DNA from: Patescibacteria group bacterium
Lineage (GTDB): Bacteria > Patescibacteriota > Patescibacteriia > GWA2-46-9
Length of the DNA: 64,000 nt
Reading direction: 5' to 3'
Assembly: GCA_041675205.1 (NCBI GenBank)
Contig: JBAYUF010000002.1
Location: 68,568-132,567 of the forward strand
A program made the position numbers and the translations under genes. The notes beneath the pieces were generated by a model. It was not told where the DNA came from. It was given only the letters and a program-made list of their open reading frames with translations, and made no database searches. Below are positions 3,062 through 57,593 of the stretch, one piece after another. How positions within the stretch are numbered: position 1 is the stretch's first letter; each line of letters starts with the position of its first letter.

Positions 3062-4123
3062 TTAGTTATAATTGGGAGCTTGTTTTTCTATCTGAATAGT
3101 ATGCGGGTGGCTTTCGGCTCTGCCGGCTGGGGTAATGCGAATGAAATGTTTACTGCACTGCATCAGTTGAGGGATTGTGGAGACTCCAACATAGCCCATG
3201 CCAGCCTTTAGTCCACCGATGAGTTGATACACCGTGTCGGCGAGAGGGCCTTTATACGGAACAATACCCTCGACACCTTCAGGTACGTATTTTTTCATTC
3301 CTTTTTGGCCATAGCGGTCAGAGCTCTCACCAATCTGCATGGCGCCTAATGAACCCATGCCGCGATACCGTTTAACTTTCTTGCCGTTCAGTAAGGTTGT
3401 ATCCCCTGGGGCTTCGTCAGTTCCTGCAAATAATGAGCCAAGCATCACTGCCGCCGCGCCGCCAGCAATAGCTTTGACTATGTCTCCCGAATAACGAATG
3501 CCACCGTCAGCAATAACCGTAATTCGATTTCCTTTGACGGCTTCTGCCACCAGTATAATGGCCGTTAGTTGTGGTACGCCGACGCCGGCAACAACACGCG
3601 TCGTGCAGATAGCGCCCGGGCCGACGCCAACCTTGAGTGCATCAACGTACGGCGCAAAAGCACGGGCAGCCGCGGCCGTTGCTATGTTGCCTACAATCAA
3701 GTTAGCGTGCACTTTTTTTCGCAGCGTTTTTACATCCTTAAGGATACTTGGTTTGTGCACGTGGGCGGAATCAACGACGATTGCGTCGATGCCCACCGCG
3801 TCTAGCGCCAACGCTCGCTCACTATCGTGTGGTCCAATTGCTGCGGCAACAAGACATCCGGCTTTTTTGACGGTTCGCACCATGGCGACCTGTTCTGGAA
3901 TCGTACAATTACGATGCAACACCCCGAGACCCCCCAATCGCGCAATGGCAATGGCCATGTTGGCGCCCGTTACGGTGTCCATGGCGGCTGAAAGCAAAGG
4001 AATAGAGAGCTGAATATTTGGTGTGAGTTTGGTCGTAGTAATGGCGGTGCTGGGCGAGACCTCAGACAATTGAGGCACCAGCAGAACGTCATCAAAGGTG
4101 AGACCAAGCGGCAGTGTTTTCAT
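3062..4123 (-). CDS. guaB: IMP dehydrogenase lacking the CBS/Bateman subdomain
   Basis: N-terminus [11 protein letters not shown]...SAAMDTVT...VKK runs directly into the catalytic barrel ([11 protein letters not shown] ... [19 protein letters not shown]). 353 aa, so no room for CBS pairs. Confidence 0.8.
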
Positions 4124-22143: not shown

Positions 22144-22292
22144 AGTCAGTAGTCCCACAGCAGCGGGGCAACAAGAGAGTCAGTAGTCCCACAGCAGCGG
22201 GGCAACAAGAGAGTCAGTAGTCCCACAGCAGCGGGACAACAAGAGAGTCAGTAGTCCCACAGCAGTGGGGCAACAAGAGAGTCAGTAGTCCC
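22144..22292. repeat. 34-bp perfect-to-near-perfect tandem repeat, 4.4 copies
   Basis: Unit AGTCAGTAGTCCCACAGCAGCGGGGCAACAAGAG x4 (two copies carry single substitutions) plus a 13-nt partial copy. No spacers. Preceded by the inverted repeat CATTGCGAC-GTG-GTCGCAATG. Confidence 0.9.
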
Positions 22293-23088: not shown

Positions 23089-23109
23089 TTTTTGTTGTCT
23101 TTTTTACTA

Positions 23110-26372: not shown

Positions 26373-26615
26373 ATGAAAAATCTTCACATGTTAACTTTCC
26401 TTCTTCTCGTTGTTGGCGGCCTTAACTGGCTTTTGCAGGGTCTTTTTGGTTGGGAAATTGGTTCACTCTTTGGTGGTATGGATATGGTTATTTCAAGAGT
26501 GATTTACATCTTGGTTGGTTTGTCTGCTATTTACGAAATAGGTACCCATAAGTCGACTTGCAAGATGTGTGGTATGAAAACCCCATCAGGAATGCCCACC
26601 GGTTCAATGTCGTAA
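26373..26615 (+). CDS. DUF378-family small membrane protein
   Basis: LLVVGGLNWLLQG...ISRVIYILVGLSAIYE. AGGAGGTGAGG ribosome-binding site. Confidence 0.55.
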   Translation: MKNLHMLTFLLLVVGGLNWLLQGLFGWEIGSLFGGMDMVISRVIYILVGLSAIYEIGTHKSTCKMCGMKTPSGMPTGSMS

Positions 26616-26663
26616 TACGGTTTTTGCATATTCCCCTAAGATAAAAAAGGGGAGTATGCTGGT

Positions 26664-26693
26664 ATGTTTCCATGTACTAGTACATGGAAACAT
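26664..26693. promoter_or_regulatory. perfect 30-bp palindrome carrying the TGTACTAGTACA (TrpR-operator-like) core
   Basis: ATGTTTCCATGTACTAGTACATGGAAACAT. Lies between the convergent DUF378 and ychF genes. Confidence 0.5.
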
Positions 26694-26715
26694 AGTATGT
26701 AACAACTGTTTGGTG

Positions 26716-27771
26716 CTAGGTGCTGAAACGAAAGTGGCAGACATCACCATCAGCCAGGGTATATGTTTTTCCTTCGAGCCGGAGTAGCCCCAGTTCCTTT
26801 GCTCGTACTTCGCCACCTGTTTTAACCAATTCTTGCCACGGAATAACTTCAGCAGCAATGAAGCCGTGTTCGAAATCGGTATGAATAACACCAGCCGCTT
26901 GTGGTGCCTTGGTGCCTTCGTGAATCGTCCACGCTCGAGTTTCTGTGGGGCCGCTCGTGAAGAACGTAATCAAGTGTAGTAATTCATAGGCTCCGGAAAT
27001 AAGCCGATCAAGACCGGAGCGCTCTAAGCCGAGGTCAGTGAGATACGCCTTGGCTTCGTCGGGTGCTAGTTCGGCTAGCTCAGATTCAATTTTTGCAGAA
27101 ATACGTATTGCGCCATTCGTCCCTATGCTGGCGGCATTTTCTTCGCTGACATTCTCGACAATTAAAAGTGGTTTTCGGGTGAGTAAATTTATAGACTGCA
27201 AAATCACAGCTTCATCTTCGGTTGTTTCAACGTCACGTACATGGTTAACAGTATTCAGTGCTTCGGCTAATCGACGGCAGAGGGCAAGTTCGGTGGCTGC
27301 ACGTGCATCCCCACTGTTCGCTCGACCCTCGGTGGCGGCGATGCGACGCGTGACCGTATCGAGGTCTGCCATGGCGAGCTCCAGCCCGATAGTAATTCGA
27401 TCACGTTCAGGATCTGGTGTGCCGTCAACGTGAATGATGTTTGGGTCAACAAAATCTCGAACCACTTCTACTATAGCGTCCACTTCACGAATGTGTGCCA
27501 AGAATTTATTACCGAGGCCCTCGCCTTTGTGCGCGCCAGCCACTAGCCCCGCAATATCAACAAATTCAATCGCCGTTGGAATAATTTTTACCGATTTTGA
27601 AACAACAGCCAGGGCTTCAAGTCGCTCATCGGGCACAGCCACCACGCCCACGTTCGGCTCAATGGTGGCAAAGGGATAATTTTCAATAACGACCTGTTTT
27701 TTTGTAAGCGCCTTAAAGAGCGTCGATTTCCCGACGTTTGGTAGACCAACGATGCCAACTTGAAGTGCCAT
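26716..27771 (-). CDS. ychF: ribosome-binding ATPase YchF
   Basis: [14 protein letters not shown]. Start taken at MALQVGIV. Confidence 0.9.
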
Positions 27772-38589: not shown

Positions 38590-39879
38590 TTAACCACGCT
38601 TGGCAAGTGCCTCCTCTAGGCGTTTTAGGGCAACGATAAACGCAGCCGTGCGCATGCTTGTTTTATATGATTCTTTCGCTTTCCAAACAGCAGCAAACGA
38701 GTCGCGCATAATCGGCTTTAATTTTTCTCTAACCTGCTTTGCTGTCCACCGGATACCTTGTTTATTTTGCAGCCATTCGAAATAGGAAACCGTGACCCCG
38801 CCGGCATTGGCCAAAATATCTGGCACGACGAGAACGCCACGTTTGAGCAGTTTACTATCCGCTTCTGGGGTAGTTGGGCCGTTTGCTACTTCGAGAATGA
38901 TTCGTGCCTTGATACGACCGGCATTTTTCTTGGTAATCTGATTTTCGAGCGCGGCTGGAATAAGGATATCGCAGGGTGCTTCGAGTAGTTTTTCGTTCGT
39001 TACGCCTTTGTAATTTTTACCATCGCACACCGATCCAACGCAGTACATCGAACCTATCATACCGCGGTCTTTTTTTGTGGCCATCACGTTTTTGGGGTCC
39101 ATGCCTTTGCCGCGGACGTCGAGTATGCCACCAGTAGAATCACTTAGACCAATGATGCGGTAGCCGGCTTTGTGAGCAAGCGTTGCCATATGAAAGCCAG
39201 CGTTCCCAAAACCTTGAATGATAACGCTGGTTTTTTTGGGGTTCAGTTTTAATTTTTTCGCGACATCTTCTAGCACCATGTAGGCGCCGTCCGCTGTGGC
39301 TGTATCGCGACCGAGCGAGCCACCCTCAGAAATTGGCTTACCGGTAACAACACCCGGTTCCGCGCGGCCGACAATGTGCCGATATTCGTCGGCAATCCAT
39401 GCCATAATCTGCGGGTTTGTATTTACGTCTGGTGCTGGCACGTCTCGTTCTGGGCCGAAGACATCTTTCATCATTCGAGTGAACGATCGTGTTAGCCGTT
39501 CCAATTCTCCGCTAGAAAGTTTTTTGGGGTTAACAGTGATACCACCTTTGCCGCCACCCATTGGTATACCCACGACGGCGCACTTCATGGTCATCCAAAG
39601 GGCAAGCGCCTTCACCTCGTTCTGGTCGACGTTTGAATGATAGCGTAAGCCGCCTTTGTAGGGGCCGCGGACGTTGGAGTGTTGCACTCGGTAACCGGTA
39701 AACAGTTTTTTTTGTCCGTCATCCATTACTACTGGAACGGTAACTTCAATGACTCGCTCTGGTTTACTTAATGTATCGAGCACTGCCGGCGGCGTGTTAG
39801 CAATTTTGCCAGCCTGTTGCAGCTGGGTTAGGGCATTCTGAAAAGCATTCATGGAGTTATCAACGACTTGGTAGCCCAA
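38590..39879 (-). CDS. gdhA: Glu/Leu/Phe/Val dehydrogenase (glutamate dehydrogenase)
   Basis: KGGLRYH ... GGGKGG ... GFGNAG. Confidence 0.85.
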   Translation of the reverse strand: MGYQVVDNSMNAFQNALTQLQQAGKIANTPPAVLDTLSKPERVIEVTVPVVMDDGQKKLFTGYRVQHSNVRGPYKGGLRYHSNVDQNEVKALALWMTMKCAVVGIPMGGGKGGITVNPKKLSSGELERLTRSFTRMMKDVFGPERDVPAPDVNTNPQIMAWIADEYRHIVGRAEPGVVTGKPISEGGSLGRDTATADGAYMVLEDVAKKLKLNPKKTSVIIQGFGNAGFHMATLAHKAGYRIIGLSDSTGGILDVRGKGMDPKNVMATKKDRGMIGSMYCVGSVCDGKNYKGVTNEKLLEAPCDILIPAALENQITKKNAGRIKARIILEVANGPTTPEADSKLLKRGVLVVPDILANAGGVTVSYFEWLQNKQGIRWTAKQVREKLKPIMRDSFAAVWKAKESYKTSMRTAAFIVALKRLEEALAKRG

Positions 39880-40855
39880 TGGCCTGGCGCACTTTTTTCA
39901 TAGTATGCAACGCAATTTTTTCAGCATTTTTTGAGCCATTGCGAAGTGTCGTAAGCATTGCTCTTGGCCGGCTACGCAGATGCAGGAACTTTTTTTGAAA
40001 GTCTTCGAGCCCGACGCAGATGTCGTTCGCTAGTGTTTCCTTTAGCTCACTGTAGCGAATAGTTCCGGATTGCTGTTTTGCCCGAAATTCAGCGGCCACT
40101 TTTGGCGTGCTGAAAGCATCAAGCAGAAGGAATAGGTTGGCTACCCCAGCCGCCACTTCGTTTTTGTCTCCCGTGCCACTGTCTGTGACTGCTCGGGCGA
40201 TTTTTTTCTTAATGATTGCTGGTTCGTCGTCCAGAAAAAGGCAACCGGTCGGTTCGGACTTACTCATTTTACGGTTCGGATCAGTTAGGCTCATTAGCCG
40301 TGGTACGCTTGTGTAAAGTGGCATCGGTACGGTGAACACTGCGCCGTAGCGAGTGTTGAATTTTTTGGCCACGGTGCGCGTCAGTTCGAGGTGCTGCGTC
40401 TGGTCGTCTCCAACCGGGACGAGGTTGCCATTGTAGAGAAGAATATCGGCGGCCATCAAGGTGGGATAGGTGAACAGGCCGACGTTGGCGTTGCCTGGTT
40501 GCCGGGCGCTTTTATCTTTATACTGCGTCATCCGTTCTAGCTCACCCATGGGCGTTACCGTGTTCAGAATCCAAGCTAACTCGGCGTGGGCGGGAACGAA
40601 CGACTGCAAGAACAAGGTGCACTTTTTCGGATTCAACCCAGCAGCCAGGTAACTTGCAATGATATCTATGATTTCGGCTGTTTTTTCTTTTGTATTGTAG
40701 CTTTCTGTCAAAGCGTGCAAGTCAGCCACCATAAAGAGGCAGTCGTGATCTGTTTGGAGCGTAACAAAGTTTTTGAGTGCGCCAAGATAGTTACCGACGT
40801 GTAGTCGGCCAGTGGGCTGAATACCAGATAAGACCCGTGAGCGAATGGTAGCCAT
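39860..40855 (-). CDS. trpS: tryptophanyl-tRNA synthetase
   Basis: GIQPTGRLHVGNYLGA (HIGH region) and KMSKS. Confidence 0.9.
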   Translation of the reverse strand: MATIRSRVLSGIQPTGRLHVGNYLGALKNFVTLQTDHDCLFMVADLHALTESYNTKEKTAEIIDIIASYLAAGLNPKKCTLFLQSFVPAHAELAWILNTVTPMGELERMTQYKDKSARQPGNANVGLFTYPTLMAADILLYNGNLVPVGDDQTQHLELTRTVAKKFNTRYGAVFTVPMPLYTSVPRLMSLTDPNRKMSKSEPTGCLFLDDEPAIIKKKIARAVTDSGTGDKNEVAAGVANLFLLLDAFSTPKVAAEFRAKQQSGTIRYSELKETLANDICVGLEDFQKKFLHLRSRPRAMLTTLRNGSKNAEKIALHTMKKVRQAIGLPSR

Positions 40856-48567: not shown

Positions 48568-49680
48568 ATGCGTCAGTTCTTCGTTCGTTTCCTTGGCGCC
48601 ATCTTGGCGTCCATCACCATGACCCTCGCTCCTGCGCCGGCTTCGGCTGGAGCGGGGAGTCAGATCGCATTGCTGTCCGAGTTTTGCCTCTACCCCGATT
48701 GCGGGGCGAGGCTTGCCTACACCTCTCATGAGTGGGGGTGGGCCAATCCGGCCACCCTCACCGAAACATTCGATCTCGGCCTCGACGACTGGGCGTCGGT
48801 CGGTGGTGCCTACTTCTACGGAAGCACCATCTACTCCGGTACGATCACCGCTGGCTTCAAGCCGGTGGTCGTGCAGCTCAACTACGTCAACGCCGCTGTT
48901 GACGGTGAGCTGCCCTCGAGCGACCTCGACCTTGCGTTCGAAACGTCACGCTGGCGGCTGTCGTTGGCGTGGGACCTGGCGTCCGTCGGCATCGATGGCT
49001 TGTCCATCGGCGTCATCGGCGTCCTGCCTGGAAGCGAGAATAAGGTTGGGATTTCAACCGAGATTCCTGACTTCGGCGACCTCGACCTCGTGAAGGCTCA
49101 CGAGGAACCCGGTTGGGACTTTACTCTCGGGATGCTCTACGAGATGGGCGAGCGCGATTGGCTGCGTTTTGGTGCGACGTTGAACGTCGCATCTTACGAC
49201 AGCAGCGTTGACGCGCTCGACCTCGACAGCGGTGAGGTCTACCGGACCAACTCCACGTCGAACCTCTGGTTCGGCCGGCTGGGTGCGACGGTACATCCGT
49301 TCGTGCCCATGGGCCTTGCCAGTGGTGAGTCCTCGTGGGACGAGTGGCTGCGCAAGGTGGAGATTTCAGCCGACCTTCGTGTCGTGAATATTTCCATCTC
49401 GGGCGAAGATACCATTCGCCCGATCGACGCCTTCTTCGGCGTCGATGTTCCCTTGCTCCCGAGGCATTGGAACCCGCTGGCGAAGTATGTTGAACTCGTC
49501 GGTGTCAGTGGCGTCGGGACCGATGGTAGCTGGGGCGCAGGCCTCGGCATCTACGGTCAAGGGCCGCTTCGGTGGCTGACCTGCGACACTATGTACTCTT
49601 CCCAGCCCGGGGGTGACCTCGGGAAGGATTTCACGCTGAGCGGCATCGGCTGCACAGCATCAATGCCGCTGCCTTTCTAG
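48568..49680 (+). CDS. secreted OMP-like beta-barrel candidate ending in Phe
   Basis: Signal peptide ...LAPAPASA. Alternating Gly/aromatic pattern. C-terminus ...ASMPLPF. Own TTGACT-17-TAAATT promoter. Confidence 0.4.
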   Translation: MRQFFVRFLGAILASITMTLAPAPASAGAGSQIALLSEFCLYPDCGARLAYTSHEWGWANPATLTETFDLGLDDWASVGGAYFYGSTIYSGTITAGFKPVVVQLNYVNAAVDGELPSSDLDLAFETSRWRLSLAWDLASVGIDGLSIGVIGVLPGSENKVGISTEIPDFGDLDLVKAHEEPGWDFTLGMLYEMGERDWLRFGATLNVASYDSSVDALDLDSGEVYRTNSTSNLWFGRLGATVHPFVPMGLASGESSWDEWLRKVEISADLRVVNISISGEDTIRPIDAFFGVDVPLLPRHWNPLAKYVELVGVSGVGTDGSWGAGLGIYGQGPLRWLTCDTMYSSQPGGDLGKDFTLSGIGCTASMPLPF

Positions 49681-54313: not shown

Positions 54314-54616
54314 ATGGAAAGAACCTTAGAAAGTATTGGGGTTGAGATCGACGAGATCGATGCCTTGTTCGTGCGTCTGCTCGCCTTACGATTTCGGTTG
54401 GCACTTGAAGCCGGCGAGATCAAGCGTGCTGCTGGATTGCCAATTGTGCGTCCGGCCGTGGAGCAGGCGAGGATTGCAGCAGTGACGAAGTTGGCAGAGG
54501 CGCAGGGGCTGCCGGATGATTTCGTTCGGGAGCTGATGGAGAAGATCGTTTTTCGTTGTCGGACGGCACAAAAACTACCACCACCTACGCGAACAGGGTG
54601 GGCCGCCTGCAGCTAA
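54314..54616 (+). CDS. AroQ-class chorismate mutase
   Basis: IDEIDALFVRLLALRFRLALEAGEIK. Confidence 0.55.
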   Translation: MERTLESIGVEIDEIDALFVRLLALRFRLALEAGEIKRAAGLPIVRPAVEQARIAAVTKLAEAQGLPDDFVRELMEKIVFRCRTAQKLPPPTRTGWAACS

Positions 54617-54627
54617 GATGTTCGACG

Positions 54628-54660
54628 GCGAGGGGGCTGATCGAAATCAACCCCCTCGCG
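54628..54660 (+). terminator. hairpin terminator after the chorismate mutase gene
   Basis: GCGAGGGGG-14 nt-CCCCCTCGC. A T-run follows 12 nt later. Confidence 0.5.
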
Positions 54661-54662
54661 CC

Positions 54663-54705
54663 TTGCTAGATTTTTTATTGTTAAATACAATGTACTAGTA
54701 CATTG
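54663..54705 (+). promoter_or_regulatory. promoter (TTGCTA-17-TACAAT) overlapped by the 18-bp perfect palindrome CAATGTACTAGTACATTG (TrpR-type operator)
   Basis: Palindrome at 54688-54705 overlaps the -10 and the predicted transcription start of the trpR-like gene. Confidence 0.55.
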
Positions 54706-54755
54706 ATATGGGGAACGTAACAAAAAAGTACATTAGTGAAGTTGAGGAAGTAGTT

Positions 54756-55001
54756 ATGCGCGCGGCGCGGTCGCCGGAGTTGCTGCATGAGTTTTTGCGT
54801 GACGTATTAACCCCAGCCGAACTTGATGAAGTGGCCTTGCGTTGGCAGATTGTAAAGCGTCTGGCGGCTGGTGCGTCGCACCGCGACATTGCCGAAGAGC
54901 TTGGTGTGGGGGTGGCTACCATTGCTCGGGGTGCCAGAGAATTAACAAACCCGACCGGCGGTTTTTGGCGCCTGCTGCAACGACCGACCGAACGTTCTTG
55001 A
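54756..55001 (+). CDS. trpR: TrpR/YerC-family repressor
   Basis: VLTPAELDEVALRWQIVKRLAAGASHRDIAEELGVGVATIARGARELT aligns to the TrpR HTH (...ELGAGIATITRGSN...). Start taken at MRAARS, which has a GAGGAAG ribosome-binding site; the alternative start is 54708. Confidence 0.7.
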   Translation: MRAARSPELLHEFLRDVLTPAELDEVALRWQIVKRLAAGASHRDIAEELGVGVATIARGARELTNPTGGFWRLLQRPTERS

Positions 55002-55029
55002 CACCACATCTCTTTCTGCTATAGTTCAC

Positions 55030-55041
55030 TGTACTAGTACA
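55030..55041 (+). promoter_or_regulatory. second TGTACTAGTACA operator, upstream of the trp leader
   Basis: Exact 12-bp core within the imperfect palindrome CACTGTACTAGTACACTG. Confidence 0.55.
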
Positions 55042-55058
55042 CTGAAACAAAGAAAAGT

Positions 55059-55127
55059 ATGATTTCTATACACATTGAAGCAAACGCTCGTTGGTGGTCC
55101 GTTCTCTATCTCAGAGGGCGAGCCTAG
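55059..55127 (+). CDS. trpL: trp leader peptide, 22 aa, with tandem Trp codons
   Basis: ATG ATT TCT ATA CAC ATT GAA GCA AAC GCT CGT TGG TGG TCC ... TAG translates to MISIHIEANARWWSVLYLRGRA. Confidence 0.5.
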   Translation: MISIHIEANARWWSVLYLRGRA

Positions 55128-55150
55128 ATTGTTATTGTTAATAATAGTTT

Positions 55151-55180
55151 TGGCCCGCTCTCTGGAGCGGGCGTTTTGTT
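55151..55180 (+). terminator. trp attenuator terminator
   Basis: GCCCGCTC-TCTGG-GAGCGGGC then GTTTTGTTTT, about 70 nt upstream of trpE. GAGGGCGAGCC (55113-55123) could form the alternative antiterminator pairing. Confidence 0.6.
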
Positions 55181-55251
55181 TTGGGTAGCGAGCCGGAATG
55201 AACCTTTGACAACAAAAACCTTTTGAAAAGAAAAGGAATAGGGAGAACGAC

Positions 55252-56823
55252 ATGAAAAACGGTGAAGCACTGAATCGTGAAATGGGTGAGGGGATGGAAA
55301 GCTGTTGGAATGGAGCATGGCGTGTGATTGATGATTACGCGGCGAATGTGCTCGATGATTTCCAGCGCATGGCTGCTGTGGGTGGTAGGCACCTGGTGCC
55401 GGTCGTTATTGGGTTGCCAAGTGACAACGTAACACCGGTAGCGGTGTATCAATCCGTCCGTCGAGCCACCACCCCAACAGTATTTCTTGAAAGTGTGCCG
55501 CAGGGGCAGCACTTGGGGGATTACACCATCGTTGGTTGTCGGATGAGCGCCCGTTTCACCGTGCGAGGTGAACGGTCGGCATTGAAACCACGGCTGGGTC
55601 GGGTGGAAATTGCCGAGGGAATGGCTCTCGAGCATCTGGAAGCGTTTTTGCAGTCAACAACACCACTGCAGCAACCTGGTCGAGCACCATTTCTTGGTGG
55701 TGCAATCGGCTACGTTGGTTTTGAGGGTGTATGCCTCATTGAACCAACGGTGTCACGGCACAGCGTGAACAAACTGGATTGGCCAGAGATTGATCTCGTC
55801 GCGTTCGACGAAGTAATCGTCTTTGACCATGCCCGTCAGCTTGTTTACCTCGTCGCTTTGGCTGAGTTCAACGGCAGCGAAAATGTAGCGGCGGCGCATC
55901 GGGATGCGTACGAACGTGCCGGTCGACTGATCCGTCATCTGCAAAAACCAATCGAGCCGCTCACCAAGCTGACCGGCGTGGATGGTAAGATTTCGAGCAA
56001 CATGACTCGGGACGTCTACGAGCGGATGATCGAAACCGGGAAACGGTATATCACCAGCGGTGATGTATTTCAGATAGTGCTGTCGCAGCGGTTCAGTGTT
56101 GGTTTTTCTGGTGATTCATTCGACTTCTACCGACACCTGCGTCGTATGAATCCATCACCGTATATGTTTCACCTTGAGCTTAGCGACGGGCGAGTGCTTA
56201 CTGGTGCGTCGCCCGAGGTTATGGTGAAAGTCAGTGGTGATGTCGTGCACATTCGACCAATTGCTGGAACCAGACGGCGGAGCATCGATGCGGTGGAAGA
56301 CGAGCGCCTGCGGCAGGAGCTGGCGGCAGATCCAAAGGAGCGGGCCGAGCACAGCATGTTGGTTGATTTGGCGCGAAATGATGTTGGCCGAGTGACAGTG
56401 ACGGGGAGTGTAGTCGTCAGCGGAGTGATGCGGGTAGAGAAATACAGCACGGTGCAGCATCTGGTGAGCGACGTGAGCGGACGACTGCACGAAGCTATTA
56501 CTCCGTTTCGGGCGTTTCTCACCTGCTTGCCGGCTGGTACGCTCTCCGGTGCGCCTAAGATTCGCGCCTGTCAATTGCTGGTTGAACTTGAGCCGTGTGC
56601 TCGTGGGCCATATGGCGGCGCTGTTGGTTGGTTCACCTCATACGGTCTTGATACGGGCATAGCGATTCGAACGGCGTGGGTAGATTCCGGAACTATGTAC
56701 TGGCAAGCAGGGGGAGGCGTAGTTGCCGACTCAACACCTGCCGGTGAGTACGAGGAGTCGCTAACGAAAGCAAGATCAATTGGCAACGTGCTCAAGCATG
56801 CAACGGGAGGTACTGGACGATGA
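55252..56823 (+). CDS. trpE: anthranilate synthase component I
   Basis: 523 aa chorismate-binding enzyme (LSQRF ... GAPK ... GGAVG). Confidence 0.9.
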   Translation: MKNGEALNREMGEGMESCWNGAWRVIDDYAANVLDDFQRMAAVGGRHLVPVVIGLPSDNVTPVAVYQSVRRATTPTVFLESVPQGQHLGDYTIVGCRMSARFTVRGERSALKPRLGRVEIAEGMALEHLEAFLQSTTPLQQPGRAPFLGGAIGYVGFEGVCLIEPTVSRHSVNKLDWPEIDLVAFDEVIVFDHARQLVYLVALAEFNGSENVAAAHRDAYERAGRLIRHLQKPIEPLTKLTGVDGKISSNMTRDVYERMIETGKRYITSGDVFQIVLSQRFSVGFSGDSFDFYRHLRRMNPSPYMFHLELSDGRVLTGASPEVMVKVSGDVVHIRPIAGTRRRSIDAVEDERLRQELAADPKERAEHSMLVDLARNDVGRVTVTGSVVVSGVMRVEKYSTVQHLVSDVSGRLHEAITPFRAFLTCLPAGTLSGAPKIRACQLLVELEPCARGPYGGAVGWFTSYGLDTGIAIRTAWVDSGTMYWQAGGGVVADSTPAGEYEESLTKARSIGNVLKHATGGTGR

Positions 56824-57404
56824 GTGAGTCTCCACGGGTACTGCTTCTTGATCACTTCGACTCCTTCACCTACAACCTGGTGCAACTGTTGGCAGTAGCC
56901 GGGGCAAGTGTTCGCGTCGTGCGGACAAATGAGGTGATGTCGACAGATGGCTTCACGCATCTTGTCCTGTCCCCCGGCCCAGGGCATCCGGATGACGTGC
57001 GGCCGTTCAAGACTGCACTGGACCGCTGGGCCGATGTTGTGCCGATACTCGGTGTCTGTCTTGGCTGCCAAGCCATTGGCTCCTGGGCGGGTGTTCCTGT
57101 TGTGCCAGCCGGGCGACTGATGCACGGCAAAACCTCTGAGGTTCGGGTGACGGTAACAGACGACGCTTTGTTCGTGGGAGTACCATCGTCGTTTACCGCC
57201 ATGCGGTATCACTCGTTGGTGCTGGACAGTGGAGCGGCTGCGCAAAGTAAGGCACTGACCGTAACAGCGCGAAGTGATGACGGTCAGGTTATGGCCGTAA
57301 CGCTCACTGGCCCGCGCAATGTATACGGGGTGCAGTTTCATCCGGAGTCATACTTCAGCGAAGAGGGTGAACAGCTGGTAAGCAATTTTCTGAAGACGCG
57401 ATAA
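56820..57404 (+). CDS. trpG: anthranilate synthase component II (glutamine amidotransferase)
   Basis: LGVCLGCQ and HPES motifs. Overlaps the trpE stop by 4 nt. Confidence 0.85.
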   Translation: MSESPRVLLLDHFDSFTYNLVQLLAVAGASVRVVRTNEVMSTDGFTHLVLSPGPGHPDDVRPFKTALDRWADVVPILGVCLGCQAIGSWAGVPVVPAGRLMHGKTSEVRVTVTDDALFVGVPSSFTAMRYHSLVLDSGAAAQSKALTVTARSDDGQVMAVTLTGPRNVYGVQFHPESYFSEEGEQLVSNFLKTR

Positions 57405-57518
57405 GGAGGCGCGTCAGCAATTGATTCGAGAGGCCGCAGACTAGTATGTTTGCGGCCTTTCTTCACGTTCTCTGTAGTTGCATCGGTAAGAAGCCTGTGC
57501 TTTAATGCCACTACTCTT

Positions 57519-57593
57519 GCGGGAGTAGTTCAGTGGTAGAACGTCTCGTTGCCAACGAGAAGGTCGCGGGTTCGACTCCCGTCTCCCGCTCCA
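57519..57593 (+). tRNA. tRNA-Gly (anticodon GCC), CCA encoded
   Basis: GCGGGAG acceptor stem, GTTCAGTGGTAGAAC D-arm, anticodon loop TTGCCAA, T-arm GCGGGTTCGACTCCCGT, then TCCA. Confidence 0.9.

Follow-up and report, generated by a model that had tools for sequence, protein, structure and literature searches.

What is a long perfect palindrome doing in the short gap between the 3' ends of two convergent genes, when its core recurs at the promoters of trpR and trpE? The question is raised by a stretch of 64,000 nucleotides, referred to here as the window, from an uncultured Patescibacteria group bacterium. An earlier note on this DNA had pointed to three copies of the 12-mer TGTACTAGTACA and had considered for the palindromic copy either an extra binding site of a TrpR-family repressor or membership of a short dispersed family of palindromic repeats. 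How Patescibacteria (CPR) regulate their transcription has been little explored. The locus was analysed for its sequence, its conservation and its relation to the tryptophan genes of the same window.

Results

The palindrome and its neighbourhood

The two convergent genes encode a small membrane protein of the DUF378 family (26373-26615, + strand; PF04070, 60 bits) and the ribosome-associated ATPase YchF (26716-27771, - strand; PF06071 and PF01926), and both point with their 3' ends towards the palindrome. The calls of these genes and of the TrpR-family gene in the earlier note agree with the Pfam profiles. The two genes leave a gap of 100 bp, and the palindrome in it starts 47 nt past the DUF378 stop codon and is separated at its other end from the ychF stop codon by 21 nt. 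The sequence ATGTTTCCATGTACTAGTACATGGAAACAT given previously for positions 26664-26693 was confirmed. Its symmetry is indeed perfect, but its length of 30 bp had to be corrected to 32 bp, because one extra base on each side belongs to the palindrome. The repeat finder accordingly returned TATGTTTCCATGTACTAGTACATGGAAACATA at 26663-26694, with two 16-nt arms and a spacer of 0; like the operators described below, this element is given without a strand.

The GC content of the palindrome is 31%, compared with 50.6% for the window. As RNA it folds on either strand into a 14-bp stem with a CUAG loop, and RNA folding at this position is highly stable for either strand (z about -6); the DNA fold was calculated at -12 kcal/mol. 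A neighbouring structure, hairpin 1, is formed by GCATATTCCCCT and AGGGGAGTATGC with a 10-nt loop (26626-26659, + strand). It is stable, lies directly 3' of DUF378 and is not followed by a clear U-tract. The counterpart of hairpin 1 in the sister-species contig L168 (about 464-494) has the same fold and a largely different sequence.

The palindrome is not an assembly artefact or a fold-back, because it is flanked by different genes whose synteny is kept in relatives and because it was met in other assemblies as well: the independent Logan contig L001 extends 29 nt into the palindrome and the megahit contig L168 spans all of it. L001 (SRR6484325) ends within the palindrome, at its positions 3290-3320, which fits the breaking of de Bruijn assemblies at long perfect palindromes. 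In collections of short contigs, such palindromes may thus be missing or cut short in a systematic way.

Copy number and rarity of the motif

Three exact copies of TGTACTAGTACA are present in the 64-kb window (26673, 54691 and 55030). No copy with one mismatch was found there, and the only match with two mismatches, at 23103, is unrelated. The 10-mer GTACTAGTAC occurs in the window three times exactly, never with one mismatch and 23 times with two mismatches. Under a mononucleotide model, 0.0035 copies of the 12-mer are expected in 64 kb. Moreover, of all 4-base palindromes in the window CTAG shows the strongest depletion (89 occurrences against an expectation of 248, ratio 0.36), and the TGTACTAGTACA sites account for three of the five ACTAGT hexamers. 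The earlier estimate that three chance copies are improbable was thus borne out, and since the expectation is so low and CTAG is depleted, chance is even less likely than had been assumed. An abundance of the motif brought about by a CTAG-related bias, which had been named as the finding that would speak against a specific site, is the opposite of what was observed.

The previously suggested count of occurrences was run on 74 kb of the genome, i.e. the window and 10 kb adjoining it (L171), and it returned only the three sites, so that the motif appears to be rare and specific. The 10-mer GTACTAGTAC was not found in 1.10 Mb of sequence from 165 other loci, and a literature search for it retrieved nothing relevant. 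The 22-bp operator consensus derived below had 0 matches among 2.9 million viral contigs, and a viral or mobile origin of the element was rejected for this reason.

The tryptophan cluster and its repressor

The other two copies of the motif belong to the tryptophan cluster (54314-57593), which contains only a chorismate mutase gene (CM_2), trpR, a leader, trpE and trpG and is followed by a tRNA-Gly gene and uvrB. None of trpD, trpC, trpF, trpB and trpA is located near the trpE-trpG cluster in the window. The trpR promoter consists of the -35 element TTGCTA (54663-54668), a 17-nt spacer and the -10 element TACAAT (54686-54691), and the operator TACAATGTACTAGTACATTGAT at 54686-54707 overlaps this -10 element. 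The repressor gene itself, encoding 97 aa, is located at 54708-55001 on the + strand. The promoter of the trp leader and trpE (-35 TTGACA, 54998-55003; 16-nt spacer; -10 TATAGT, 55020-55025) is associated with the operator TTCACTGTACTAGTACACTGAA at 55025-55046, which covers the last base of the -10 element and runs downstream; the 12-mer copy within it (55030) is found four bases past the -10 element. Both copies are thus placed as is typical of repressor sites.

The order behind the latter promoter is a leader peptide, a hairpin with a T-run, trpE and trpG. The leader peptide MISIHIEANARWWSVLYLRGRA (55059-55127, + strand) has 22 codons, among them tandem Trp codons. It is followed by an attenuator-type terminator (55153-55182, + strand), in which the GC-rich hairpin GCCCGCTCTCTGGAGCGGGC precedes the T-run GTTTTGTTTT. 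The regulated genes trpE (55252-56823) and trpG (56820-57404) occupy positions 55252-57404 of the + strand. The leader and the hairpin with its T-run resemble E. coli-style attenuation in a Patescibacteria genome.

The repressor matches the Pfam family PF01371 with 63 bits (cut-off 27). Its best NCBIfam model is TIGR01321 (TrpR), whose equivalog cut-off of 67.25 it misses with 44 bits; the YerC/YecD model reaches 29 bits. In the alignment with E. coli TrpR, the residues T44, R54, R69, A80, T81, R84 and G85 are conserved; in the E. coli protein they make up the co-repressor (tryptophan) pocket and the helix that reads the DNA. Elements with CTAG are established as core sites to which the Trp repressor binds (PMC1166578). 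In E. coli, the sequence of the trp promoter includes AACTAGTAC and reads GAACTAGTTAACTAG...TAC.

A search with the repressor protein recovered two related loci, L163 (TrpR 84% identical) and L164 (74%). In both of them GTACTAGTAC is present exactly at the trpR promoter and at the trp-leader/trpE promoter, and the flanks are divergent. L163 and L164 have no CM_2 gene between the response regulator gene and trpR, and the leader of L163 (675-785) differs in sequence from that of the window, yet it also has the residues WW (...CWWQ...). Because of the promoter positions of the motif, its conservation in L163 and L164, the TrpR residues and the precedent of CTAG, GTACTAGTAC was taken to be the operator core of the TrpR of this lineage.

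No operator-like site was found at trpS of the window (about 39872-40834, - strand). In distant CPR loci with a TrpR (L165-L167, about 52% identical), trpR directly follows a gene for a class-I tRNA synthetase, which seems to be trpS, and GTACTAGTAC is absent. The sequence GTGTACTATTnnACTATGAC, with a GTACTA half-site-like element, is shared upstream of trpR by these loci (about 5000-5022 in L165 and about 395-415 in L166 and L167).

Operator consensus and the fit of the orphan site

The half-site consensus T(-11) T/A(-10) C(-9) m r T G T A C T(-1) was built from 16 half-sites of eight sites: the three sites of the window, including the orphan one, two sites each from L163 and L164 and one from L168. 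The resulting 22-bp consensus TTCNNTGTACTAGTACANNGAA reads TTC-NN-TGTACT:AGTACA-NN-GAA (the colon marks the dyad) and has 18 specified bases. GTACT:AGTAC is found at the dyad in all eight sites (16/16 half-sites). A single CTAG on the dyad is likewise present in 8/8, and the architecture of E. coli with two CTAG boxes 8 bp apart was not encountered among them.

When the window and the adjoining 10 kb were scanned with the consensus, the orphan site (26668-26689) showed 0 mismatches in the 18 specified bases, the trpE operator also 0 and the trpR operator 2, and no other site in the same 74 kb had fewer than six. The three copies have only the operator in common, which does not agree with the suggested dispersed family of palindromic repeats. 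The arm TATGTTTCCATGTACTAG of the orphan palindrome differs by one base from the trpE promoter/operator sequence TATGCTTCCATGTACTAG of L164, and its right arm has TGTACTAGTACAnnGAAACA in common with the trpE operator of the window. An overlap with a promoter was seen at the trpR and trp-leader/trpE sites and not at the orphan site.

Conservation of the orphan site in relatives

The conservation of the orphan site was assessed in a single relative, L168, which was found by a search with the DUF378 protein. Its DUF378 and YchF are 91% and 92% identical to those of the window, the overall nucleotide identity is 82% and third codon positions are 53-74% identical. The convergent arrangement of DUF378 and ychF is kept, and TACGTTTCCATGTACTAGTACATGGAAACGTA is present at the equivalent place. 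Within the palindrome, 30/32 positions are identical, and the block from -13 to +13 (26666-26691) is invariant (26/26). The spacers on its left and right have 25/47 and 11/21 identical positions, i.e. about 53% in the flanking intergenic DNA, and at this rate the probability of at least 30/32 identities is about 6e-7. Purifying selection on the orphan site is clear from this comparison of the window with one sister species.

The two differences in the palindrome form a mirrored pair, T>C at -14 and A>G at +14, and the perfect symmetry in L168 extends to 38 bp, with a stem of 17 bp. Since hairpin 1 in the same gap kept its fold and not its sequence, as would be typical of an RNA element with a structural role only, it is the sequence, beyond mere pairing, that is constrained in the palindrome. 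The mirrored change at +/-14 and the longer palindrome of L168 in turn indicate a constraint on the pairing of the arms (hairpin or cruciform) or templated repair, for which protein binding alone is insufficient. A hairpin or cruciform role may coexist with the binding of TrpR.

In more distant relatives with the same synteny, L169 and L170 (DUF378 about 75% identical), the motif is absent and an ordinary GC-rich terminator hairpin is found at the position of the orphan site; in L170 the hairpin is flanked by A- and T-runs. The locus P0021 (DUF378 78% identical) was not accepted as a further relative because its synteny differs. A scan of species-representative genomes with YchF yielded relatives of at most 73% identity, the closest being Candidatus Uhrbacteria CG10; the motif was downstream of ychF in none of them, and most are without the DUF378 synteny. 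Their distance makes them of little use for judging the site. Metagenome contigs gave a best YchF identity of 66% among the matches listed. In the YchF protein search, full-length proteins with more than 73% and less than 100% identity were missing, which leaves L168 as the sole close relative for the orphan site.

Other signals at the site

The palindrome had been described before as not being a canonical terminator, and the present data are in agreement with this: a U-tract after the stem is absent on both strands and the terminator scan found 0 candidates at the site. Its arms are U-rich at the 5' side and A-rich at the 3' side, which is the reverse of a bidirectional terminator. The real palindromic terminators of this genome (23060-23093, 46481-46510 and 4136-4171) run from an A-rich 5' part through a GC-rich stem to a T-rich 3' part and have 47-53% GC. 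An intrinsic terminator was rejected on the basis of the missing U-tract, the empty scan and the reversed polarity. The first two of these terminators are perfect palindromes without a spacer and the third has 16-nt perfect arms and a 4-nt spacer; all look like bidirectional intrinsic terminators, and because of them, palindromes of the 30-bp class are not unusual as such in this genome.

The promoter scan detected no sigma-70-type promoter at the orphan site on either strand. Inspection by hand revealed -10-like hexamers in the arms and no conserved -35 element. No Rfam family or tRNA was assigned to the site. A replication terminus or dif site was dismissed, as the GC skew is positive throughout the window and has no inflection at 26.6 kb. 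The site was also rejected as a restriction-modification target, because the neighbouring methyltransferase (UPF0020) is syntenic in relatives without the motif.

Two other elements of the window were recorded. A tandem repeat at 22144-22292 is composed of 4.4 copies of the 34-bp unit AGTCAGTAGTCCCACAGCAGCGGGGCAACAAGAG with 97% matches, and its period is not a multiple of three. At 48861-48956, ARAGORN called a 96-nt tRNA-Asn inside an ORF of 370 aa; Rfam gave no support at the gathering threshold, and the call is probably false.

Discussion

We propose, with a probability of roughly 0.6, that the palindrome between DUF378 and ychF is a third, promoter-less (orphan) operator of the TrpR family, which is fully symmetric and perfect in its consensus. 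The extra TrpR-family binding site suggested by the earlier note is well supported at the sequence level, by the match to 18/18 consensus bases and by the identity of 30/32 positions in L168 against 53% nearby. The repressor loaded with tryptophan would bind the orphan palindrome, probably as two dimers side by side covering about 26 bp, if the example of E. coli TrpR on DNA with one central half-site is followed. Each dimer would read one half of GTACT:AGTAC and a weaker outer half-site (GTTTCmr), and the invariant positions -13 to +13 correspond to the span expected for such binding.

As no promoter was detected in the gap, repression of initiation is an unlikely consequence of this binding, and the location of the site past both stop codons suggests a roadblock or a sink as the main possibilities. 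The orphan operator probably acts as a tryptophan-dependent roadblock or as a titration site. In the former case it would function as a roadblock or insulator against polymerases reading through from either convergent gene. In the latter case it would be a high-affinity sink which sequesters the repressor and thereby fixes the threshold at which the autoregulated trpR/trpEG circuit responds. No connection of DUF378 or ychF with tryptophan is known, and the orphan site is without a classical target gene.

A more far-reaching version, which we consider speculative and unlikely to be correct, is that tandem TrpR makes the site a tryptophan-sensing switch on convergent transcription and thereby modulates YchF. 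In the presence of tryptophan, tandem dimers would clamp the palindrome, and either ychF would be insulated from DUF378 read-through or the -10-like hexamers in the arms would be silenced. In its absence the site would open, and antisense or read-through transcription would lower the expression of YchF, an ATPase of translation stress.

The orphan operator has to be weighed against a palindrome that is primarily an RNA or DNA hairpin, serving as a 3'-end stabiliser or unconventional terminator of ychF and/or DUF378 without any role of TrpR. Its operator-like core would then go back to a duplicated piece of a trp promoter or be a coincidence. The position is suitable, 21 nt from the ychF stop and 47 nt from the DUF378 stop, where L169 and L170 have their terminator hairpin, and other perfect palindromes of 30-34 bp in the window occupy the places expected of terminators. 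The stability of the RNA folds on both strands (z about -6) and the sole change in comparison with L168, which is compensatory (U-A to C-G) and accompanied by the longer, 17-bp stem, are also in favour of a structure. However, the palindrome has no U-tract, its polarity is reversed, its GC content is 31% compared with 47-53% in the genuine palindromic terminators and the terminator scan was empty. A structural stem could drift as hairpin 1 did, yet the 26 central base pairs, including the 4-nt loop, are invariant and equal to the operator consensus, and agreement with 18 specified bases by chance has a negligible probability. We therefore regard a hairpin without TrpR as a rather unlikely explanation. 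Part of the same evidence could be accounted for by a non-functional relic, i.e. a duplicated fragment of the trp promoter/operator which became symmetric, and was kept so, by intrastrand template switching and not by selection. Each arm differs very little from the half of the L164 trpE promoter that comprises the -10 element and the operator, and the mirrored substitution and the palindrome lengths of 32 vs 38 bp fit templated conversion of the arms. Template switching equalises the arms but cannot stop their joint drift, and 26 bp are unchanged where the flanks are 53% identical and synonymous sites are near saturation, which makes a relic very improbable.

The -10-like hexamers allow for one or two weak promoters without a -35 element inside the palindrome, which would be repressed by TrpR and, when tryptophan is scarce, would produce antisense transcripts into ychF and/or DUF378. 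TATGTT (TACGTT in L168) is present in each arm at -16 to -11 from the dyad, which is the register of the trpE -10 element in three lineages (TATAGT, TACTAT and TATGCT), and in the window TGG, which resembles the TGn of an extended -10 element, stands before it on the + strand. We nevertheless find such promoters improbable: neither strand has a -35 box and the promoter scan was empty at the site, the TGn is absent in L168 where the hexamer is also weaker (TACGTT), two promoters would face and exclude each other, and no conserved RNA or ORF downstream and no Rfam family were found. It is still far less probable that the site belongs to a dispersed repeat or mobile family (REP or MITE-like), is a recombination site such as dif or serves as a restriction-modification target. 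It is a perfect palindrome with the SpeI-type ACTAGT and has a gene with a methyltransferase domain 360 bp upstream, but its copies have only the 12-22-bp operator in common, with none further in 74 kb, the GC skew is positive across the site and the UPF0020 methyltransferase is encoded by a housekeeping gene that is found in synteny in relatives without the motif.

The window contains a complete two-tier control of tryptophan genes in the style of E. coli, with an autoregulated TrpR and its operators and with a Trp-codon leader followed by a terminator. Different from the E. coli regulon are the operator with a single CTAG, the score of the repressor below the cut-off and the third operator without a promoter. 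If the repressor binds the orphan operator, this could be a natural titration site kept by selection or a conditional roadblock between convergent genes. Should the tryptophan-sensing switch prove true, it would be the first TrpR operator to act as a conditional terminator or insulator and the first TrpR control outside the genes of aromatic amino acids, and it would tie amino-acid status to ribosome-associated regulation in a CPR genome that is reduced and poor in regulators. The orphan site is also an ideal operator for a structural study of tandem TrpR binding.

Comparison with known systems

The palindrome resembles bidirectional intrinsic terminators in its location between two 3' ends, where L169 and L170 have a hairpin, and in its perfect symmetry over about 30 bp. 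It is unlike them in that it has no U-tracts, the A/U polarity is reversed, the GC content is low and the sequence is kept rather than the structure. Parallels are also provided by repressors that act as roadblocks at non-initiating positions, such as PurR in purB and CodY and CcpA. In the trpRBA intergenic region of Chlamydia, the repressor YtgR bound at a non-initiating position terminates read-through transcription (PMC6504234). As in these cases (YtgR, PurR, CodY/CcpA), the orphan operator would be unable to block initiation and able to stop an elongating polymerase. The known roadblocks are located downstream of a promoter and inside the regulated unit, whereas the palindrome is found past the stop codons of a convergent gene pair for which no link to tryptophan is known.

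The tryptophan cluster is similar to the TrpR regulon of E. coli (trpEDCBA, trpR and aroH) in that the repressor gene adjoins the regulated genes and is autoregulated, and repression is combined with a leader peptide containing Trp codons and a terminator as in E. coli trp. Like the E. coli operators (PMC1166578), those described here are dyad-symmetric, contain CTAG with a GTACTAG half-site and overlap the -10/+1 region. The differences are the orphan copy away from promoters, the CPR host and a repressor that scores below the TrpR equivalog level. The E. coli operators have two or more CTAG boxes 8 bp apart (GAACTAGTTAACTAGTAC), whereas a single CTAG is placed on the dyad here, with TTC/GAA at +/-9-11. 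In one E. coli genome (NZ_CP148323.1, 1915954-1916128), which was among the top-ranked matches to the trp promoter, an extra 8-bp operator unit GAACTAGTTAACTAGTTAACTAGTAC gives three CTAG boxes. The trp operator of strain K-12 has two. In the 1993 structure of Lawson and Carey (PDB 1TRR), E. coli TrpR reportedly binds in a tandem 2:1 complex, with two dimers side by side on a central GTACTAGTAC. An arrangement of this type would explain both the operator with a single CTAG and the invariant 26-bp block. The DNA in the tandem crystal is a synthetic oligonucleotide, and in the lineage studied here the same arrangement would be the natural form of the operator.
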